NCBI GenBank assembly: GCA_016840465.1
Contig: JAEOSH010000012.1
Span: 15,535 to 47,534 of the forward strand
Source of the DNA: Candidatus Baldrarchaeum yapensis
Lineage (GTDB): Archaea > Asgardarchaeota > Baldrarchaeia > Baldrarchaeales > Baldrarchaeaceae
Length of the DNA stretch: 32,000 bases
Reading direction: 5' to 3'
Shown here piece after piece: positions 1-31,379 of the stretch; the stretch's first letter is position 1; each line of letters opens with the position of its first letter. Under the pieces are notes generated by a model, which saw only the letters and a program-made list of their open reading frames with translations, did no database searches and was not told the origin of the DNA. Both the position numbers and the translations under genes were made by a program.

Positions 1-308
1 GCATATGCAACTAATATGACATTTCTCCCTCCCGCGATCACAATGTAACCATTCGTCCCCCTTATCGTTATTTCACGCAATTCTCCTCGCTTGAGTTTTT
101 CGGAGACGGTGGACGAGTGTTCATATATTTTGATTATGGCTTCAGCTGTGGGCTCATATGGGATCCTTTCGATCCCCTCCGCCGCTATCAATTCTCCAGT
201 ATTCGAAACAACAATCATTCCCTCAATTGCTGGAATGATCTTCATGATTTCCCTAAGAATTGCCAATATCTGCTCTCTGGCCGCCACACGGTCTTCCTCC
301 TTTGACAT
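1..308 (-). CDS. Roadblock/LC7 domain protein (3'-truncated by the window edge; absent from the ORF track)
   Basis: Manual translation from ATG at 308 is open to position 1: MSKEEDRVAAREQILAILREIMKIIPAIEGMIVVSNTGELIAAEGIERIPYEPTAEAIIKIYEHSSTVSEKLKRGELREITIRGTNGYIVIAGGRNVILVAY. Shows the Roadblock pattern (IEG-hhhh-xxxG-x-hh ... hxhxGxxGYhh). Divergent from the 411 gene. Confidence 0.85.
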   Translation of the reverse strand, partial: MSKEEDRVAAREQILAILREIMKIIPAIEGMIVVSNTGELIAAEGIERIPYEPTAEAIIKIYEHSSTVSEKLKRGELREITIRGTNGYIVIAGGRNVILVAY

Positions 309-410: not shown

Positions 411-695
411 ATGCTATCCGAGGATGTCATTAAGAGCATTCTTGAGAACCTCGGGAAGATGGAAGGCGTTAAGGGGGTCGTTATCACAACGACGGAGGGA
501 ATTCCGGTACACTCAACATTCCCACCAGATGTAACCGAGAAAATATCCGCATTTGCCGCGTCTCTCTTAGGAAAAGCTAAAGAGATGATCAAGGAAGTGG
601 GTGGCGCAAAGGTTACCTTTATAACACTAGACACGTCGGAAGGCGAACTCTTAATATCAAGTGAACAGGAATATGTGATAGCGATCTTGCGGTAG
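411..695 (+). CDS. Roadblock/LC7 protein, short form resembling dynein light chain roadblock
   Basis: 94 aa; GVKGVVITTTEGIPVHST motif; ends at the last beta strand; AAGGAG upstream. Confidence 0.9.
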   Translation: MLSEDVIKSILENLGKMEGVKGVVITTTEGIPVHSTFPPDVTEKISAFAASLLGKAKEMIKEVGGAKVTFITLDTSEGELLISSEQEYVIAILR

Positions 696-750
696 GAATA
701 AATTTAATACCGGGTTTGCCGTGAAAAATAATGATGTGGACGGTGGTCGA

Positions 751-1218
751 ATGGAGCCTAATGTCTTTGAGAAAATACTAACAAGGCTAATAAAGAGCGA
801 AAGCGGAATAAGACGGGCGATCTTAGTCGATAGAACCGGTCTGACTATCGCCCATGCCTCGAAGTTCTCATCCTATTATCCGATAGACGTGGAGGGAATA
901 GGCGCTATTGCAAGCGCGATTTTCGTTGGCAGTGAGGAGCAGGGCAAGAACCTTGACATAGGAGACCTACAAATGGTGATATCAGAGTTCGAGAACGGAA
1001 AAATATTCGCAATCAGCTGCGGACAGGGGGTACTTTGCCTAATCACCGATCCGGATGTCAATATAGGAATGATAAGGTTGCTCATGAAACGAACTGCTGC
1101 AGAATTAGGGAAATTGCTGGATGAGTTCCTATCGGCCACCGTCTCGATTCCTGTAGAGGAGAAGAAGGAGGAAGAGGAAGAACTAAAGGCAGCCCTCGAT
1201 GCGCTGGAACAATTATAA
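751..1218 (+). CDS. mglB: MglB-like Roadblock protein with linker and acidic C-terminal helix
   Basis: AILVDRTGLTIA and GMIRLLMKRTAAEL match MglB (LVDKNGQLI, GLVRLRIKKASDEL as recalled); lies directly upstream of an MglA-like gene. ATG at 751 preferred over the track's GTG at 721. Confidence 0.85.
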   Translation: MEPNVFEKILTRLIKSESGIRRAILVDRTGLTIAHASKFSSYYPIDVEGIGAIASAIFVGSEEQGKNLDIGDLQMVISEFENGKIFAISCGQGVLCLITDPDVNIGMIRLLMKRTAAELGKLLDEFLSATVSIPVEEKKEEEEELKAALDALEQL

Positions 1219-1233
1219 TGGTGGCCATAAGAC

Positions 1234-1824
1234 ATGCCAAGAGTTGACCCCCAGGGAAGATTACACTTTAAAATAGTGTTCTGGGGTCCCTCTTTATCGG
1301 GAAAGACGACATCACTTAGGTGGATATACAATAACGTAGAGGGAATAACTAAGGGGAGATTTGTGTCGATAGAAGATCCGACAGGCAGAACGCTATACTT
1401 CGACTACACGCCTGTCTCCATATCGTCAAAAGTCGTGTTCGATCTCTATACAGTCGCGGGGCAAAGAAGGCACAAAATACAGAGAAGGAAGGTGCTGGAA
1501 GGAGTAGATGGAATACTATTCGTAGCAGATTCGGATCCAGCTCAGCTTCAGGAAAATGAAATTAGCATGACCGAATTAAGACAACTGCTAGGAGACAAGC
1601 TTGGAAGGGAAATACCACTTGTCGTGTTACTAAATAAGCGAGATCTTCCAAATGCCGTGAGTAAGGAAACCCTCCTCAATGCCCTTAAGATAGTCCCGGT
1701 AAATATTCGCGTTTATGAGGGAATCGCGATAAGAGGGATAGGAGTGAAACAGGCTTTCAAAGCGATAGTTCGTGAGGTGCTCTGGAACTATTACCAGCGG
1801 GCTAAGCAACAGAAGGCACAATGA
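1234..1824 (+). CDS. mglA: MglA-family small GTPase
   Basis: G1 GPSLSGKT; G2 TGRTLYFD with the intrinsic Arg-Thr; G3 TVAGQ (MglA-type, not DxxGQ); GVDGILFVADS; G4 NKRD. Confidence 0.93.
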   Translation: MPRVDPQGRLHFKIVFWGPSLSGKTTSLRWIYNNVEGITKGRFVSIEDPTGRTLYFDYTPVSISSKVVFDLYTVAGQRRHKIQRRKVLEGVDGILFVADSDPAQLQENEISMTELRQLLGDKLGREIPLVVLLNKRDLPNAVSKETLLNALKIVPVNIRVYEGIAIRGIGVKQAFKAIVREVLWNYYQRAKQQKAQ

Positions 1825-1851
1825 AAAAGTTTATCCAAAACAGGAGTTTTC

Positions 1852-2259
1852 ATGTTTATGAAGGTGATTGAAGTGAGTGAGGTTGTAGGGGTTGAGCCTC
1901 AAACACTATCCAAATTACTAAAGGAGTTTACAATGACAGTCCCAGAAATCGAGGGCGCGGCCCTTGTCACTGATGAGGGACTACCAATAGTGTCCGTTCT
2001 TCCAGAGGGTGTTGATGAAACAAAGATTGCCGCTATGACGGCAGCAATTCTATCTCTTGGAGAACAAACATCTAAAGAATTAGGGAAGGGGTCTCTAGAG
2101 CAGGTTTACATTAAAGGGAAGAACGGTTACATAATAGCGATGGATGCGGGATCGAATGCCGTGTTAGCCGTCATCGCAAGCAGTGAAGCAAAACTAGGGC
2201 TAGTTTTGTTTCGCATGGAGCAGCTTGCTGAGAAGATATCAAAGATAATATCTTTGTAA
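1852..2259 (+). CDS. Roadblock/LC7 domain protein
   Basis: PEIEGAALVTDEGLPIVS; AAMTAAILSLGE; LEQVYIKGKNGYII; KLGLV. Classical prokaryotic Roadblock pattern. Confidence 0.93.
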   Translation: MFMKVIEVSEVVGVEPQTLSKLLKEFTMTVPEIEGAALVTDEGLPIVSVLPEGVDETKIAAMTAAILSLGEQTSKELGKGSLEQVYIKGKNGYIIAMDAGSNAVLAVIASSEAKLGLVLFRMEQLAEKISKIISL

Positions 2260-15218: not shown

Positions 15219-16766
15219 ATGAGAAAGGAGATAGGGACCATAATATGCACCGGTCGTTCACCCTGTGCATCCGAGTTTGATTTCGTAGTGACGGACAATT
15301 CATCCCCGATACCGGTGAGAAAGGGTCAATTTGTGGAGGTAAAGACCGAGGAAGGCATCATAATAGGTCAGGTTACCGAAGTCGTTAAAACGAATAGGTA
15401 CTTCATGCATGCAGACGCGGTGAGAGAGTTCGAAAGGAGCGGATACTTGGTATCATCGATATTCCCGGTCGACAGATGGGAATATATAATAGGTAAGGCA
15501 ATTGCACTCGCTGTCCTAACGAAAAACGGCATAGAGAGGGTGACATTCCCGCCCTCACCCGGAGATAGGGTGTTTTTGGCAGATGAAGAAGTACTTCCAA
15601 AGTTCTTAGGCTTTGATATGGCGAATGGGGTCGAAATAGGAACCCTAATGTACCATGATGTTCCCGTGAGGCTAGATCTAACAAGACTTCTCCAAAAGCA
15701 TGTGGCAATTCTCGCAATGTCGGGTGCTGGAAAGTCTTACCTTGCATCTATACTTATGGAGGAACTTCTGCTGAGAAGACCCGAACAGGGACGGATCGGT
15801 GTGATCGTGATAGACGTGCATGGCGAGTATGTTTCAATGGCCGAAAAATGCGAAGATAGCAATTTAATAGACTTCTCAGACAAGATTTCGGTTATAGATG
15901 CCTCCTATTTTCAAATATCTGTGCCCTTACTATCAGAGCGTGACCTCGCAGAGTACCAACCGCAGATGACACCTATCCAAATCAGAGAACTGGGGCGTAT
16001 AATAAGTGCTCGTAGGAGGAAAATGCTAGAAAAGGGGGAGCCTTATGACTTAAAGCAAATAATTCAGGACGTGGAACGAGATGAACGGATACAACCACGA
16101 ACAAAGGAGGCGCTTCTCGGATGGCTCTACGATCTCGAATCAACAGGACTATTTGGCCCTACAGAATCACCAATACTCGAAAACATAATAAAACCCGGAC
16201 ATGCAACGATAATAGACCTTAGCGGAATCGTTAGCCTCAGAAAAAAGCAGATAATTGTCGCCTATATGCTGAGAAGACTATTTGATCTGCGAAAGAGAAA
16301 TGTAATACCGCCGTTTCTGGCAATAATCGAGGAGGCGCATCAATTCTGCCCAGAAGCCAGAAGAGAACTTGCAATTTCAAAGAGCATAATAGAAACAATA
16401 GCGAGGGAGGGAAGGAAGTTCTTTGCATCATTGTGTTTAATAAGTCAGCGACCCGTCAGACTATCAACAACGGCTTTGTCCCAATGCAATACGCATATCA
16501 TACTGCGGATAACTAATCCCTATGACCTAAAGCACATAGGAGAGAGCTGTGAGGGAATTGACAAATCAACTTTAGACGCTGTGACAACACTAAACGTGGG
16601 AGAGGCGTTGATAGTGGGGGAGGCCACGAATTTCCCAGTTTTTGTAAAGATAAGGACTCGCAAGAGCAGGGAACTCAAATACTCGGTACGATTGGAGGAG
16701 GTTGCAAGGAGATTTGAAGAATTTTCGGATAGACAACTATCTGAGTTTTATGACAATTCTATCTAA
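15219..16766 (+). CDS. herA: HerA-family ATPase/DNA translocase
   Basis: N-terminal HAS-barrel-like region, HVAILAMSGAGKSY (Walker A), IDVHGEY, IIEEAHQF (Walker B), EGRKF, LISQRP, SQCNT. Confidence 0.92.
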   Translation: MRKEIGTIICTGRSPCASEFDFVVTDNSSPIPVRKGQFVEVKTEEGIIIGQVTEVVKTNRYFMHADAVREFERSGYLVSSIFPVDRWEYIIGKAIALAVLTKNGIERVTFPPSPGDRVFLADEEVLPKFLGFDMANGVEIGTLMYHDVPVRLDLTRLLQKHVAILAMSGAGKSYLASILMEELLLRRPEQGRIGVIVIDVHGEYVSMAEKCEDSNLIDFSDKISVIDASYFQISVPLLSERDLAEYQPQMTPIQIRELGRIISARRRKMLEKGEPYDLKQIIQDVERDERIQPRTKEALLGWLYDLESTGLFGPTESPILENIIKPGHATIIDLSGIVSLRKKQIIVAYMLRRLFDLRKRNVIPPFLAIIEEAHQFCPEARRELAISKSIIETIAREGRKFFASLCLISQRPVRLSTTALSQCNTHIILRITNPYDLKHIGESCEGIDKSTLDAVTTLNVGEALIVGEATNFPVFVKIRTRKSRELKYSVRLEEVARRFEEFSDRQLSEFYDNSI

Positions 16767-27835: not shown

Positions 27836-28129
27836 CTATCTTCTTCCGAGCGGTACTCTCTTCTTTCTCTCCTCTTCAGGCCTTATCTTAGCGATCCCGT
27901 AGTAAACAGCACATCTTATACAGTAATAAACAGTATCGGTACGTGTGTATATGTATGCCCCCTGCTTCCGTAGCTCCTTCATGAGCGAAGGGTCAACTAG
28001 GCTTATCCTCCGTGTTATCTTTTTCGCCTTATCTCTCGGCACCCTTTGACCGCACTTGCAACATTGGACGTACTCGGTTCGCCCCTTACTACCCTTCGAT
28101 CTTCCACCACTTTTTCGTTTCTTTGGCAA
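27836..28129 (-). CDS. rps26e: Small ribosomal subunit protein eS26
   Basis: MPKKRKSGGRSKG, VQCCKCGQRVPRDKA, YYCIRCAV, KIR. Confidence 0.96.
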   Translation of the reverse strand: MPKKRKSGGRSKGSKGRTEYVQCCKCGQRVPRDKAKKITRRISLVDPSLMKELRKQGAYIYTRTDTVYYCIRCAVYYGIAKIRPEEERKKRVPLGRR

Positions 28130-28272
28130 GATTTTTCCTCCAGTTCCTCCTTCTACCTTAATTTGTGATAACTACATACCTTAAAAATGTTCTGTAAAAA
28201 CGAAATTCACGAAAAACAAATAAAGTGGAGGAACGCACAGCACCTAGCATCGCGTTACAGAGCAACGTATCG

Positions 28273-28908
28273 TCAGAATCTAGTGGATGCCACTATGAGT
28301 CCTGCCATCGTGATATGCAACGCAAAGTACTCGAGTAACATTTCAAAATTCAGCAATAAGTGATGTGAAAGTGCCCATACCACTAAGCATAACGTTAGCA
28401 GGGCTATGCGCGCACTTTTCAATTTTATTGCGGAGAGAATAAACACCGATACTATCAGCAAACCCCCGCTAATTGCATAAATTTTCATTATTGCTGAAAA
28501 CCACAAGGGGACCCCGGGCTCGTCAAATATCTCCGCCCTGACGACATGTATCCCGATGAACGGCAATGATAGTAATATGCACACCACGCTTACAATTATC
28601 AGAATTCTAATCGCCCGTCTCAATCCTCTATGGACAAAAATCTCCGAAAGTAACAGCCAGCCTATCGCCCCAGTCGGCATTCCTATGGTGAACCATATAA
28701 GTGCAAACATATCTCTCGAAAACAGGCCAACCGACCATATCAGTACATCTATCTGCCCAAGTATTCCAAGTACATAGTAAATGGCAAAAAACAACGTCCC
28801 CTTCTCCACCTTCTTATAAACAATTGCAGGCCTTAGCAATAAGTATGCTGCAACCACAGACGCCAAGATACTAGTCGTACCAACTACCTCGAGAACCATG
28901 AAAATCAC
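28273..28908 (-). CDS. Stand-alone predicted 7-TM membrane protein
   Basis: Seven ~20-aa hydrophobic segments by eye; basic loops after segments 1, 3 and 5. Start overlaps the GTPase stop (GTGA), or ATG at 28899 with a GGGTGA RBS. Confidence 0.8.
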   Translation of the reverse strand: MIFMVLEVVGTTSILASVVAAYLLLRPAIVYKKVEKGTLFFAIYYVLGILGQIDVLIWSVGLFSRDMFALIWFTIGMPTGAIGWLLLSEIFVHRGLRRAIRILIIVSVVCILLSLPFIGIHVVRAEIFDEPGVPLWFSAIMKIYAISGGLLIVSVFILSAIKLKSARIALLTLCLVVWALSHHLLLNFEMLLEYFALHITMAGLIVASTRF

Positions 28909-29468
28909 CCTATATTCTCCAATATTTTCAAGAGCAGAGTCTCAAACGCCTCCTTTACCCCCATACCGGTGATCGCCGAAGTTCGCATCACCTCAACCTC
29001 ATCTCCCAATCCAAGAGCGCTCTTTAACTCCTCTGGGGAAATTACGCCATTAAGGTCACATTTGTTTATGCAAAAGAGCAACGCCGTACTCCGCTTAATC
29101 ACGCGTTTCAGCTCCTCCCAGCATTTTTTATTGAGCTCTATGCAGGTGCGTTGCCCATCCGCTACGAAGATGACCCCATCGGTTCCCCTGAGTATCGTGT
29201 ACCTGGTTCCTGCGTAATAATCCTGTCCGGTAGCCGTCCATAGATTCACCTCCAACGTCCAGTCATCAAATTTCAGTTTGATTACCCCAAAGTCGAAAAA
29301 GAGAGTCCTTCCGGTAGTGGTCTCGACGGATCTAACATGGTCGTCGTATCCCAGTTCCTTCAATAGAGCCTTCAGTGAGGTGGTCTTTCCGCTCATCGCA
29401 GGTCCATAATACACGATCTTCAATTTTATCGTTTTATTAGCGCGATCTACAATCATGATCATCACCAC
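28905..29468 (-). CDS. MglA-like small GTPase (second paralog)
   Basis: KIVYYGPAMSGKT, TGRTLFFDF, TATGQ, GTDGVIFVAD, NKCD, TSAITG. ATG at 29462 overlaps the upstream stop (TGATG). Confidence 0.93.
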   Translation of the reverse strand: MVMIMIVDRANKTIKLKIVYYGPAMSGKTTSLKALLKELGYDDHVRSVETTTGRTLFFDFGVIKLKFDDWTLEVNLWTATGQDYYAGTRYTILRGTDGVIFVADGQRTCIELNKKCWEELKRVIKRSTALLFCINKCDLNGVISPEELKSALGLGDEVEVMRTSAITGMGVKEAFETLLLKILENIG

Positions 29469-30355
29469 AGACTATCGATCCAGTCGCTAATGCTGCGAAT
29501 CACGCTCTTAGAAATCAAATCTCCGAAATCCTCTCCCCACTCGGCCCTAATAAACTCAAGAAGGCCCGCAATGTCTATGTGCGGATAGAGTATTGTCTGT
29601 AGTAAAGTCCTATCGGAAATCCTATCCCTCATACCAACATTGTTAAGTATTCTGAGTTTGTAAAGAAGTATTAAGGCCCTCCTAGCCGCATGCACGAAGT
29701 TCAGAACCTCATTTCGTAGCAACTCCTCCTTGAGCATAGTCTCCTCGGTACTGAAATCTAAGAGTATATCCGAGAGATCGGTATCCAACCTCAGTCCGCG
29801 AATTCTCCTCCTGATGACTTTACGCATTCTGCTCAGAGCGGTATGAGTCCTCACAATAGCATTTTCAATTAACTGCCTTTCAAATCCATAAAGCCTTTCC
29901 TGATCTCCCAAGGACTCCATGCGCACTCCATCGCTCAAGTATAAGACCTCCACAGGTCCGGAATATCTGAAAACTCCCTCAACAATCTTATTAGTATCGT
30001 TATTTGGCTCTCGAAGAACCCCCAAAACCCAACCCTTGAAGTCAGAAAATTTCTCGAGCGCCATTTTCACATATCTGCATGGACACACAATTACAACTCG
30101 CTTTGCATGTAAATCCTGTCTCTCTCTCCTCAGGATTTCTTCGTACTCCCTTGTAGTTATGAAATCTATACCAAAGATGACTTTATCCCTATGAGGCGCA
30201 AATGAAGCTATATACTCAAGCATTAAATCCACGGATCCCCCATTTTCCCCAATAACGATAATGGGCCTCCTTAATAGCAGTGCGCTCAGCAACCTCGCCA
30301 ACTCGTCTACATTCAATGACGAAAATATCATTGAGGGCGAAAACGTGCCCTTCAT
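29462..30355 (-). CDS. Putative cDENN/dDENN-like protein lacking the uDENN (longin) module
   Basis: FSSLNVDELARLLSALLLRRPIIVIG...IASFAP, WVLGV and VEVLYL follow the recalled cDENN pattern (F..l.v..ll.l..alLleRRIv....L.P ... PyliGi ... vvmlnvD); helical C-terminal half. Alignment by eye only. Confidence 0.6.
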   Translation of the reverse strand: MKGTFSPSMIFSSLNVDELARLLSALLLRRPIIVIGENGGSVDLMLEYIASFAPHRDKVIFGIDFITTREYEEILRRERQDLHAKRVVIVCPCRYVKMALEKFSDFKGWVLGVLREPNNDTNKIVEGVFRYSGPVEVLYLSDGVRMESLGDQERLYGFERQLIENAIVRTHTALSRMRKVIRRRIRGLRLDTDLSDILLDFSTEETMLKEELLRNEVLNFVHAARRALILLYKLRILNNVGMRDRISDRTLLQTILYPHIDIAGLLEFIRAEWGEDFGDLISKSVIRSISDWIDSLW

Positions 30356-30357
30356 GT

Positions 30358-31302
30358 TTACCCCCTCCTAAATATCCTCATTATTTTGGATAATATTCCG
30401 GATAGGTAACCTCTATGTCTGTTTCTGGTGTTATCTATCAAATCCCTTAATTTTTTGACATACGAGGGAAGAAAGACCTTTATAAGACCAAGCCTTAACC
30501 CCTCTTTTGAATTCTTGAGTGCAAGAATGCCGACGCTTATGTCGTAAAGAATGTAGTTGGTCTCCTCAAAATCACAAATAAACTGAGTCACCTGACTTCT
30601 TTTAAGCGTCCATGCTAGCCTCTTCGAAACGTCCATCACTGAATAGAGAAAGGGAGCTAAGTACTCCAACTCGCTACCATTCTTGGAAACGGTAACAACA
30701 GGCGTTCCTCCATCAATTATAAATGCCGCGGACATAACTTGAGGTATTACTTTCATCAGGCCGTCAAGAAGCGATCTTATTGTACGAATTTCATCATCAC
30801 TGAACTCGAAAACCTCCCTCTCTACAGTGTCCACCTCTAGCGACCCCGGCCTCAAAGAGAACCTCTTAAGAGTCTCCAACATGGCATCATCAATACCCTT
30901 AGGAGGAACCCTAAGATCCCTCAACCGTAACAACTCGGGATACGCAATACTCACAAATTCGTTGATCTTCAAGAAAATCGCGCCCATATTTACCGATGCG
31001 TGGGTCAATACGGCAAGGCGCAATTCCTCAATTTGAGGGAGAGATGATATTATGAGTTTTGCCCTATCGCCTTCTATTACTACATAGTTCGGATTCTTGT
31101 TGTGTATTTGATGGACCGCCTTTATTATGGCCGCTACCGATGAGCACACTCCTAGTACCTCTTCCTGACTAAGCCACGCACCCGAAATTCCCAGCGGGTA
31201 TCCGTCCTGCTGAACCAGTACCACGACCTCAACTCCGGGTACTTGCCTAATCATCTTAAGGCGAGACGCTATGCTGCTTTCCATGGCTGCTCGCCCCTCC
31301 AC
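30358..31302 (-). CDS. Tandem (double) Roadblock/LC7 protein with C-terminal amphipathic helix
   Basis: Domain 1: VPGVEVVVLVQQDGYPL...VVIEGDRAKLII...VNMGAIFLKI. Domain 2: IPQVMSAAFIIDGGTPVV...LRLGLIKVFL. Tail GYLSGILSKIMRIFRRG. ATG at 31284, after a GGAGGGG RBS, is a likely start. Confidence 0.85.
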   Translation of the reverse strand: MEGRAAMESSIASRLKMIRQVPGVEVVVLVQQDGYPLGISGAWLSQEEVLGVCSSVAAIIKAVHQIHNKNPNYVVIEGDRAKLIISSLPQIEELRLAVLTHASVNMGAIFLKINEFVSIAYPELLRLRDLRVPPKGIDDAMLETLKRFSLRPGSLEVDTVEREVFEFSDDEIRTIRSLLDGLMKVIPQVMSAAFIIDGGTPVVTVSKNGSELEYLAPFLYSVMDVSKRLAWTLKRSQVTQFICDFEETNYILYDISVGILALKNSKEGLRLGLIKVFLPSYVKKLRDLIDNTRNRHRGYLSGILSKIMRIFRRG

Positions 31303-31379
31303 ATAAGTGTCTCTAAGAAATGTATAAAAACCCCGAAAGATCGCGTCTTATTCAGTCATGTAGAAAATTGGGGATAACA

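Follow-up and report, generated by a model that had tools for sequence, protein, structure and literature searches.

We describe a four-gene locus in a 32,000-nucleotide stretch of contig JAEOSH010000012.1 (forward-strand positions 15,535 to 47,534, assembly GCA_016840465.1) from the Asgard archaeon Candidatus Baldrarchaeum yapensis; the whole of this stretch is termed the window, and positions are counted from its first letter. The locus encodes, in the order of transcription, a tandem Roadblock protein, a protein of 297 amino acids (aa) with a predicted DENN fold, an MglA-like small GTPase and a seven-transmembrane (7-TM) protein. It is very probably the Baldrarchaeia copy of an operon that is conserved among Asgard archaea, and it would work as a self-contained GTPase switch in four steps. 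Judged by comparison of genomes, the conserved unit is the triad of the first three genes, and the 7-TM gene is an order-specific neighbour which seems to have been joined to the transcription unit in the window genome, so that a functional link between the 7-TM protein and the triad is possible. The assembly that holds the window comprises 2,267,786 bases in 100 contigs with a guanine-cytosine content of ~0.45, the nearest named relatives of the window's genes are Candidatus Baldrarchaeota metagenome-assembled genomes (MAGs), and a search of sequencing runs placed the DNA of the window in hydrothermal-vent, sediment and seawater metagenomes.

Conservation was analyzed in a sample of 400 Asgard genomes, 90 of which are of high quality. 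The DENN-like family was found in 237 of the 400 genomes and in 67 of the 90 high-quality ones, being near-universal in some families (84/86, 101/135 and 16/19) and absent in others (0/31, 0/12 and 0/12). The order Roadblock-DENN-GTPase was kept in 28 of 30, in 19 of 20 and in most of the 80 loci retrieved; once recognised duplicates had been set aside, the triad was colinear in 97 of 120 loci with median gaps of 4 and 3 nucleotides (nt), and several of the non-colinear loci were truncated contigs or carried over-extended open reading frames (ORFs). Named hosts of the triad are Baldr-, Odin-, Hermod-, Thor-, Hel- and Sigynarchaeota as well as Lokiarchaeum ossiferum. The initial annotation of the window had named a survey of gene neighbourhoods across Asgard genomes as a check, and in these the first three genes are conserved while the fourth, the 7-TM gene, is not.

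An Asgard operon composed of a LAMTOR1-like Roadblock, a Rab-like GTPase and a DENN protein was predicted by Liu et al. (bioRxiv 10.1101/2020.10.19.343400, Fig. 5b), who likened it to folliculin/Ragulator and proposed a role as guanine nucleotide exchange factor (GEF) (10.1101/2020.10.19.343400). That operon agrees with the locus described here in its three gene families, its phylum and its conserved colinearity; the present locus differs in that its GTPase is MglA group-1-like and not Rab-like, its Roadblock protein is a tandem of two domains and a fourth gene for a 7-TM protein is present. This fourth gene is unmentioned in the text of Liu et al., where the words 'transmembrane', '7TM' and 'GPCR' (G-protein-coupled receptor) occur zero times each. 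Later papers place DENN domains among the Asgard trafficking homologues and discuss FLCN/SMCR8-type longins in Asgard. The Roadblock-DENN-GTPase core is published, and only the 7-TM gene appended to it in one order appears to be unreported. The novelty claimed at the outset, when the initial annotation knew of no characterised system of this composition, is largely not supported, as the core had already been predicted by Liu et al.

All four ORFs are consecutive on the minus strand in the ORF list (Table 1), and the sequence reading bore out the coordinates and the three junctions given for this set of packed genes in the initial annotation. The Roadblock and DENN genes meet at TAA-AC-ATG with a gap of 2 nt (30356-30357), and the DENN and GTPase genes overlap by 1 nt at TGATG (29460-29464), where one A belongs both to the stop codon of the 297-aa gene and to an in-frame ATG of the GTPase gene. 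At the GTPase/7-TM junction the motif GTGA is present (28905-28908), as described earlier; this overlap is real sequence but probably not the start in use, because orthologue alignments favour ATG 28899, located 5 nt past the GTPase stop. The database gene call for the 7-TM protein (P0069) is 208 aa long. Orthologue alignments also favour ATG 31284 as the start of the Roadblock gene, with GGAGG located 12-16 nt upstream, and gene packing is tight under either choice of starts. The four ORFs are real genes and not chance frames, because orthologues of the three upstream genes occur in hundreds of genomes and those of the fourth in every genome of the same order. The TATA-like and oligo-T elements of Table 1 were picked out by eye.

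Among solved structures, the best relatives of the GTPase are MglA of Myxococcus xanthus and Thermus thermophilus (E 3e-22 to 1e-20), and the next solved family is Thorarchaeota Rab (E 1.4e-9). The alignment with MglA pairs the P-loop GPAMSGKTT with GPGLCGKTT, the switch I stretch TGRTLFFDF, which has an intrinsic arginine beside the G2 threonine, with TDRTLFFDF, and the G3 motif TATGQ with TVPGQ. In 32 GTPase orthologues K28, R54, T55, T80, G81, Q82 and the Asn, Lys and Asp of NKxD are invariant; the first G3 position is T, S or C among the orthologues, and the Val-Pro pair of the MglA motif TVPGQ is not kept in the operon GTPases. Group-1 MglA is defined by an arginine that adjoins the G2 threonine and by a threonine-first G3 motif, and it hydrolyses guanosine triphosphate (GTP) by means of its own arginine finger, which MglB positions (Wuichet & Sogaard-Andersen 2014, PMC4316618). 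The literature distinguishes MglA1 and MglA2-5 groups in Asgard archaea. Going by its motifs and best matches, the GTPase is MglA group-1-like, a label that on the same grounds is more specific than the 'Rab-like' of Liu et al.

The Roadblock protein of the window is matched weakly by Pfam Robl_LC7 in its N-terminal half (E 8e-4), and 29 of 30 orthologues are matched by the same family with a best E of 3e-10. When the family profile was compared with solved structures, positions 5-122 matched 7f8m_A (E 4.9e-5), and positions 174-295 matched 9jue_D (E 1.7e-8), CvnB5 (3leq, 2.7e-4) and MglB (0.012). These profile matches indicate a single-chain tandem, corresponding to a covalently joined dimer of MglB or LAMTOR2/3. 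At its C-terminus (30358-30405) the window protein ends in a cationic amphipathic helix, LSGILSKIMRIFRR, whose hydrophobic moment of 0.83 is not reached by any other 14-mer of the protein, and a net charge of +6 was counted over the final 30 residues; in 29 orthologues the moments were 0.31-0.67 and the net charges -5 to +4. The helix may target the protein to the membrane.

A word-indexed search of proteins returned no relative of the 297-aa protein besides itself, and an exhaustive HMMER search returned 68 cluster representatives of its family among 1.8 billion, 21 of them below E 1e-30. In the family alignment R29, P31 and R56 are invariant, and E78, R86, W109, E159, E204 and E272 are nearly so. 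The AlphaFold2 (AF2) model of the protein has a predicted local distance difference test score (pLDDT) of 93.3 and a predicted template modelling score (pTM) of 0.88; it consists of an alpha/beta part (residues 1-150) and a helical part (157-296), and begins with two short helices that are followed by cDENN beta1 at residue 32. Exhaustive comparison of this model with 48,161 PDB chains by VIA-align gave Z-scores of 12.7 for DENND10 (186 residues aligned), 12.4 for the C-terminal domain of folliculin, 10.1 for SMCR8, 9.9 for DENND1A and 9.5 for C9orf72, with the DENN matches covering model residues 3 to 275-285. The stretches matched in the targets (FLCN 343-558, DENND10 157-357 and DENND1A 167-367) all lie past the longin domain, and neither the AF2 model nor the structural alignments contain a longin (uDENN) domain in the 297-aa polypeptide. 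Foldseek gave probabilities of 0.97-1.00 and its top TM-scores to FLCN, DENND1A, C9orf72/SMCR8, DENND11, Avl9, DENND2B and DENND6B, the probability being 1.00 for DENND11, Avl9 and FLCN. With Pfam, Folliculin_C was found in 3 of 34 family members (best E 4.8e-4) and DENN in 1 (E 0.093). On the predicted structure, the protein is a cDENN-dDENN module without a longin domain.

For the 7-TM protein, hydropathy indicates ~7 segments, and an AF2 model built on six orthologues has seven helices (pLDDT 86.4, pTM 0.80). Nearly all of the top 50 matches of VIA-align in the PDB are GPCR bundles, with 190-204 of 208 residues aligned at 3.9-4.5 A; ADGRL3 scored Z 12.1, GPR156 11.4, and GABA-B, CD97, GIPR and CaSR 10.6-11.3. 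The GPCR bundles among these matches lie at Z 9-12, a range that for helical bundles may mean a common arrangement only, values of Z below ~13 being possible for such bundles from shared arrangement alone. Designed 'GPCR-like fold' proteins and the Ost-alpha transporter (Z 10.1) are also among the fold matches. Among the clusters of the AlphaFold database, a free-standing 'histidine kinase N-terminal 7TM region' protein comes first (TM-score 0.69) and a sigma-54 activator that has a 7-TM module at its N-terminus comes next (0.62), and the neighbours in the ESM Atlas are GOST, 7TM-GGDEF and 7TM-AraC clusters. The protein matched no Pfam or NCBIfam family, no Pfam E-value reached 0.01 in 6 members, and 7TMR-DISM_7TM gave E 6.1 in 2 of the 6. 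Lysine and arginine are clustered in loops 1, 3 and 5 (KKVEK, HRGLRRAIR and KLKSAR), and by the positive-inside rule this predicts a topology with the N-terminus outside and the C-terminus inside (N-out/C-in). Invariant in the family are Y28, E32, T35 and L36 of loop 1, the AEI...P.WFS stretch of outer loop 2, and the intramembrane residues D51, E123, K139 and N184; these residues would suggest a functional core rather than a passive anchor. The model points to a seven-helix bundle of GPCR-like or HisKA_7TM-like fold. Taken together, the four assignments of the initial annotation were sustained by these comparisons: an MglA-like GTPase (best structural relatives MglA, with the group-1 motifs R54/T55 and TATGQ), a tandem Roadblock (each half matching solved Roadblock proteins), a DENN-like 297-aa protein (by structural search on the predicted model) and a kinase-free 7-TM protein (seven helices in the model, 208 aa, no soluble domain and no Pfam match).

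The distribution of the 7-TM family sets it apart from the triad. By single-sequence and profile searches of the 400 Asgard genomes, it was detected in 5 of 5 Baldrarchaeales genomes (the window's own and all four of a sister family in the same order) and in 0 of the 395 others, the remaining matches being marginal or interrupted by stop codons. In every Baldrarchaeales contig examined, the 7-TM gene adjoins the GTPase gene on the same strand. A spacer of 66 nt separates the two genes in the sister genus, containing in order an oligo-T run, a conserved (A/G)GTTTTTATAG and a Shine-Dalgarno-like GGAGG/GAGGG; the octamer TTTTTATA, which is the candidate TATA element of the window operon, also precedes the sister-genus 7-TM gene. 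These elements are kept in four or five contigs, and their layout is that expected of an archaeal terminator followed by a promoter. Only in the window genome is the spacer reduced to 5 nt. In Thor- and Hermodarchaeota the triad is followed by housekeeping genes (CTP synthase, NurA and fumarase), and in Loki-related genomes the position after the GTPase is taken, on the same strand, by a protein of 92-124 aa with 2-3 transmembrane helices and no Pfam family (Table 1). This small protein was tried as a relative of the Baldrarchaeales 7-TM protein and rejected (hhalign probability 0.6%, E 0.096). The initial annotation had taken the four genes as a full module of sensor, exchange factor, GTPase-activating protein (GAP) and GTPase. 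The triad keeps its gene order across Asgard, but the 7-TM gene is confined to Baldrarchaeales and is missing from the triad of G001, the only genome sampled from family f3 of another order; since the 7-TM gene is not a conserved member, a full module is a possible reading for the Baldrarchaeales lineage only. A four-chain complex prediction, in which the 7-TM protein was the partner of Roadblock, DENN 7-297 and GTPase 5-187 and which was made without controls, scored 0.02 against a mark of 0.32 and is neutral on binding.

The proposed mechanism builds on the folds, sequence families, catalytic motifs, gene order and spacing, and phyletic distribution reported above, from which we infer the binding events, the GAP and GEF roles, the membrane targeting and any input from the 7-TM protein. 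At its centre would be an MglA group-1 type GTPase that itself contributes both the arginine finger (R54) and the catalytic glutamine (Q82). The tandem Roadblock would fold as a pseudo-dimer like the MglB dimer, providing one platform per GTPase, and would stimulate hydrolysis through the positioning of R54 and Q82, as in MglA-MglB. The cDENN-dDENN protein would then provide in trans the part that is fused to a longin domain in the folliculin, SMCR8, C9orf72 and DENND proteins of eukaryotes, and would have the same GTPase as its target, either promoting exchange or helping to scaffold the platform, such that the Roadblock and DENN-fold proteins could together be viewed as a split version of the eukaryotic longin-DENN module. 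In the fourth step, the seven-helix protein specific to Baldrarchaeales and encoded directly downstream would come into play, its gene probably being in the transcription unit in the window genome, where the spacer has been lost. This loss of the spacer, together with the amphipathic tail of the Roadblock protein in the same genome, suggests a switch at the membrane, and the switch in Baldrarchaeales may indeed operate there.

The eukaryotic longin-DENN complexes (FLCN-FNIP on RagC/D, C9orf72-SMCR8 on Arf1 and DENND1-Rab35) have the cDENN and dDENN folds in common with the operon and likewise pair DENN with a platform of the Roadblock/longin superfamily and a small GTPase. They differ in that the longin-like part is here a separate tandem-Roadblock polypeptide instead of an N-terminal longin domain, and in that the client is apparently of MglA type and served by one DENN protein, with no DENN heterodimer. 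An arginine finger offered in trans in the style of FLCN/SMCR8 is not required, because the operon GTPase has an intrinsic one. The likeness to the MglA-MglB switch lies in the R-T motif of switch I, the TxxGQ form of G3 and the spacing of group-1 MglA, and in both cases the Roadblock partner is encoded beside the GTPase; in the operon, by comparison, two Roadblock domains are fused, a DENN-fold gene lies in between, the host is an archaeon, and no RomR/RomX-type partners were seen. A similar logic is found in the actinobacterial conservon (CvnA, which is membrane sensor kinase-like; CvnB, a Roadblock; CvnC; and the GTPase CvnD), namely one operon that combines a membrane protein and a Roadblock with a protein whose role is unclear and a GTPase related to MglA, and the C-terminal half of the operon's Roadblock protein matches CvnB5 (3leq, E 2.7e-4). 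Unlike CvnA, the 7-TM protein has no histidine-kinase-like domain, as it is made up of only 208 aa and seven helices. In place of CvnC (DUF742), for which no Pfam match was obtained in any of the four operon proteins at E up to 1, there is the DENN-fold protein, and the membrane gene is the last one here and is conserved in one order only. HisKA_7TM, 7TMR-DISM and the GPCR/GOST fold have the same seven-helix arrangement as the 7-TM protein, with the same predicted N-out/C-in topology, but the latter stands alone, with no output domain and no significant sequence match to them.

Several points weigh against the locus being a four-step switch of this kind. A literature search found no experimental characterisation of the operon, no RNA dataset containing the window DNA was present among the sequencing runs searched, and the labels 'Rab-like' for the GTPase and 'LAMTOR1-like' for the Roadblock used by Liu et al. 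(10.1101/2020.10.19.343400) depart from an MglA-type interpretation. The 297-aa protein of the window matched neither Pfam nor NCBIfam, and its DENN assignment is based on predicted structure and weak sequence signals. The LSGILSKIMRIFRR-type tail is confined to the orthologue of the window genome, a single occurrence. As for the fourth gene, the oligo-T run and the TTTTTATA element of the sister genus mean that it may be an independent gene, and in G001 the S26e gene directly follows the GTPase gene with no 7-TM gene present, so that the 7-TM gene was gained or lost at the GTPase/S26e junction.

The part played by the 7-TM protein can be viewed in two ways. In the first, the switch is receptor-coupled: a dedicated 7-TM sensor would use its basic cytoplasmic loops to bind the GTPase or the Roadblock/DENN regulators and would control nucleotide exchange, making up an archaeal counterpart, without a kinase, to GPCR-G-protein signalling or to the conservon. 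The adjacent and co-directional 7-TM gene in all Baldrarchaeales contigs examined, the 5-nt gap or GTGA overlap in the window genome, the predicted GPCR-like or HisKA_7TM-like fold, and the invariant cytoplasmic loop 1, second outer loop and intrahelical polar residues are consistent with such coupling. We nevertheless consider it unlikely, given that a profile search finds the family in one order (5 of 400 genomes), that the triad works without a 7-TM protein in all other lineages, and that the sister-genus spacer of 66 nt carries an oligo-T run and a TATA-like element; moreover, the S26e, PadR, CDP-alcohol phosphatidyltransferase and YjeF neighbourhood is syntenic in the order, and the GTPase/7-TM adjacency may therefore be inherited synteny. 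The fold is an uncertain guide as well, as a Z of ~12 for a helical bundle can mean a common arrangement only, and there is no membership by sequence in any 7-TM receptor family. It is correspondingly improbable that a minimal 7-TM protein of GPCR-like fold, free of an output domain, has been recruited in Baldrarchaeales as receptor or anchor of an MglA-type switch regulated by Roadblock and DENN. In the second view, the 7-TM gene has nothing to do with the operon and encodes, say, a small transporter or a membrane protein with another function; it was inserted between the operon and S26e in the ancestor of Baldrarchaeales and has merely lost its spacer in the window genome, and the chances of this are evenly balanced. 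It is favoured by the promoter-like and terminator-like elements kept in the spacer of four or five sister-genus contigs, by G001 with S26e directly after the GTPase, by the housekeeping genes that follow the triad in Thor- and Hermodarchaeota, and by the presence of the Ost-alpha transporter among the fold matches; set against it are the reduction of the spacer to 5 nt, which implies co-transcription in the window genome, its coincidence with an amphipathic tail of membrane type that the Roadblock protein has acquired, and the unrelated 2-3-transmembrane protein at the same position in Loki-related genomes, which hints at recurrent membrane partners.

An alternative of another kind concerns the 297-aa protein, which might be a P-loop/RecA-like NTPase domain that has degenerated, carries a helical appendix and merely resembles DENN. 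GspE, VirB11, FlaI and RuvB-like proteins do match the alpha/beta domain at Z 8-9.7 with similar Foldseek E-values, and the window protein has no Pfam DENN match. These P-loop ATPase matches, however, mostly stay at Z 9.7 or below over residues ~1-155, with a few (GspE 2oap and FlaI) extending to ~220, whereas DENN proteins occupy ranks 1-5 and 7 with scores up to 3 Z units higher, are the only ones to cover both subdomains (to residues 275-285), and account for the Foldseek probabilities of 0.97-1.00 and the highest TM-scores. The three family members that match Pfam Folliculin_C, and the location of the gene between Roadblock and small-GTPase genes, argue in the same direction, and the family alignment contains no conserved Walker A, the beta1-alpha1 loop being GENGGS in the window and variable elsewhere. 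We regard a P-loop/RecA-like identity as very unlikely and retain the DENN-fold assignment for the switch proposed above.

Table 1. Coordinates of the operon, its candidate signals and related features; positions are those of the window unless a locus handle is given.
Feature	Positions	Strand	Remarks
Tandem Roadblock/LC7 protein	30358-31302	-	314-aa ORF; probable start ATG 31284, giving 308 aa
cDENN + dDENN fold protein	29462-30355	-	297 aa; predicted, without longin/uDENN
MglA group-1-like small GTPase	28905-29468	-	187-aa ORF; probable start ATG 29462 or 29456
7-helix membrane protein (predicted)	28273-28908	-	211-aa ORF; probable start ATG 28899, giving 208 aa
Candidate archaeal TATA box TTTTTATA	31323-31330	-	~40 nt upstream of ATG 31284; read from the sequence
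Candidate archaeal terminator, oligo-T runs TTTGTTTTT and CGTTTTTA	28195-28220	-	after the 7-TM stop, before S26e; read from the sequence
S26e gene	27836-28129	-	see text
Second Roadblock/GTPase cluster	411-2259	+	see text
Second Roadblock/GTPase cluster, further part	3-308	-	see text
Lokiarchaeia operons near 16S	L051 1925-3419; L059 1858-3352; L055 2167-3658; L050 7562-9057; L053 7273-8234		see text
Loki-related small transmembrane protein	L059 6484-6855; L050 4059-4415; L014 543-914; L051 6590-6865	GTPase's strand	gap ~10 nt (L059, L050), ~115 nt (L051)

A number of further observations were made around the operon and its relatives. The S26e gene (Table 1) is on the strand of the operon in the window genome and on the opposite one in the sister genus (L040, L009) and in G001 (L042), a single-gene inversion in the otherwise syntenic block of 7-TM, S26e, PadR, CDP-alcohol phosphatidyltransferase and YjeF genes. 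At a distance of 26 kb, the window contains a second Roadblock/GTPase cluster, where Roadblock genes of 94, 165 and 135 aa surround an Arf/Gtr1/MglA-like GTPase of 196 aa that is 36% identical to the operon GTPase, and no DENN gene is present in this cluster. In Lokiarchaeia, including the complete genome of Lokiarchaeum ossiferum, the operon lies ~300-800 nt from the 16S ribosomal RNA gene and is transcribed divergently from it; owing to this proximity, a contig end lies 1.5-2 kb away from the operon in dozens of Loki MAGs. Paralogous pairs of a tandem Roadblock and an MglA-like GTPase with no DENN gene between them occur in Hermodarchaeota and related assemblies (L066-L071, L074, L076 and L078), and downstream of these pairs come metabolic genes and often more MglA-like GTPase genes. 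The genes of 404-458 aa that follow the pairs in Hermodarchaeota were considered as carriers of a hidden DENN domain and discarded, as they gave no hidden Markov model signal for it and encode a class-III aminotransferase and a saccharopine dehydrogenase. The genus g52 (G166 and G168; loci L018, L021 and L057) has the DENN-like gene alone, away from Roadblock and GTPase genes and flanked by multi-transmembrane proteins (5, 6, 6 and 8 predicted helices) and a 799-aa protein, and Roadblock-GTPase pairs lacking DENN are found in assemblies related to this genus (L089 and L126). Two loci with the Asgard operon are deposited under bacterial titles (L062 and L135; 'uncultured Planctomycetia bacterium' and 'Patescibacteria group bacterium'), probably through binning or labelling errors.

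Overall, the triad is one of the few cases in which an Asgard small GTPase is paired by gene order with candidate regulators of eukaryotic type, and this pairing makes it a good entry point to the question of whether regulation by DENN and Roadblock/longin proteins predates eukaryotes, a point that is already in the literature. What the present locus adds is a sharper definition of the parts (a putative group-1 MglA whose arginine finger is intrinsic, two Roadblock domains in a single-chain pseudo-dimer, and a longin-less DENN module), one lineage in which a seven-helix membrane protein has been appended to the operon, and a membrane-type tail on the Roadblock protein of the window genome. The 7-TM extension is new and lineage-restricted, and its functional meaning is uncertain; receptor coupling of the switch, for which gene adjacency is the basis, is doubtful at present. 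If the link to the membrane holds true, this compact set of four proteins from a 2.3-Mb genome would offer a tractable reconstitution of a membrane-coupled archaeal GTPase switch.

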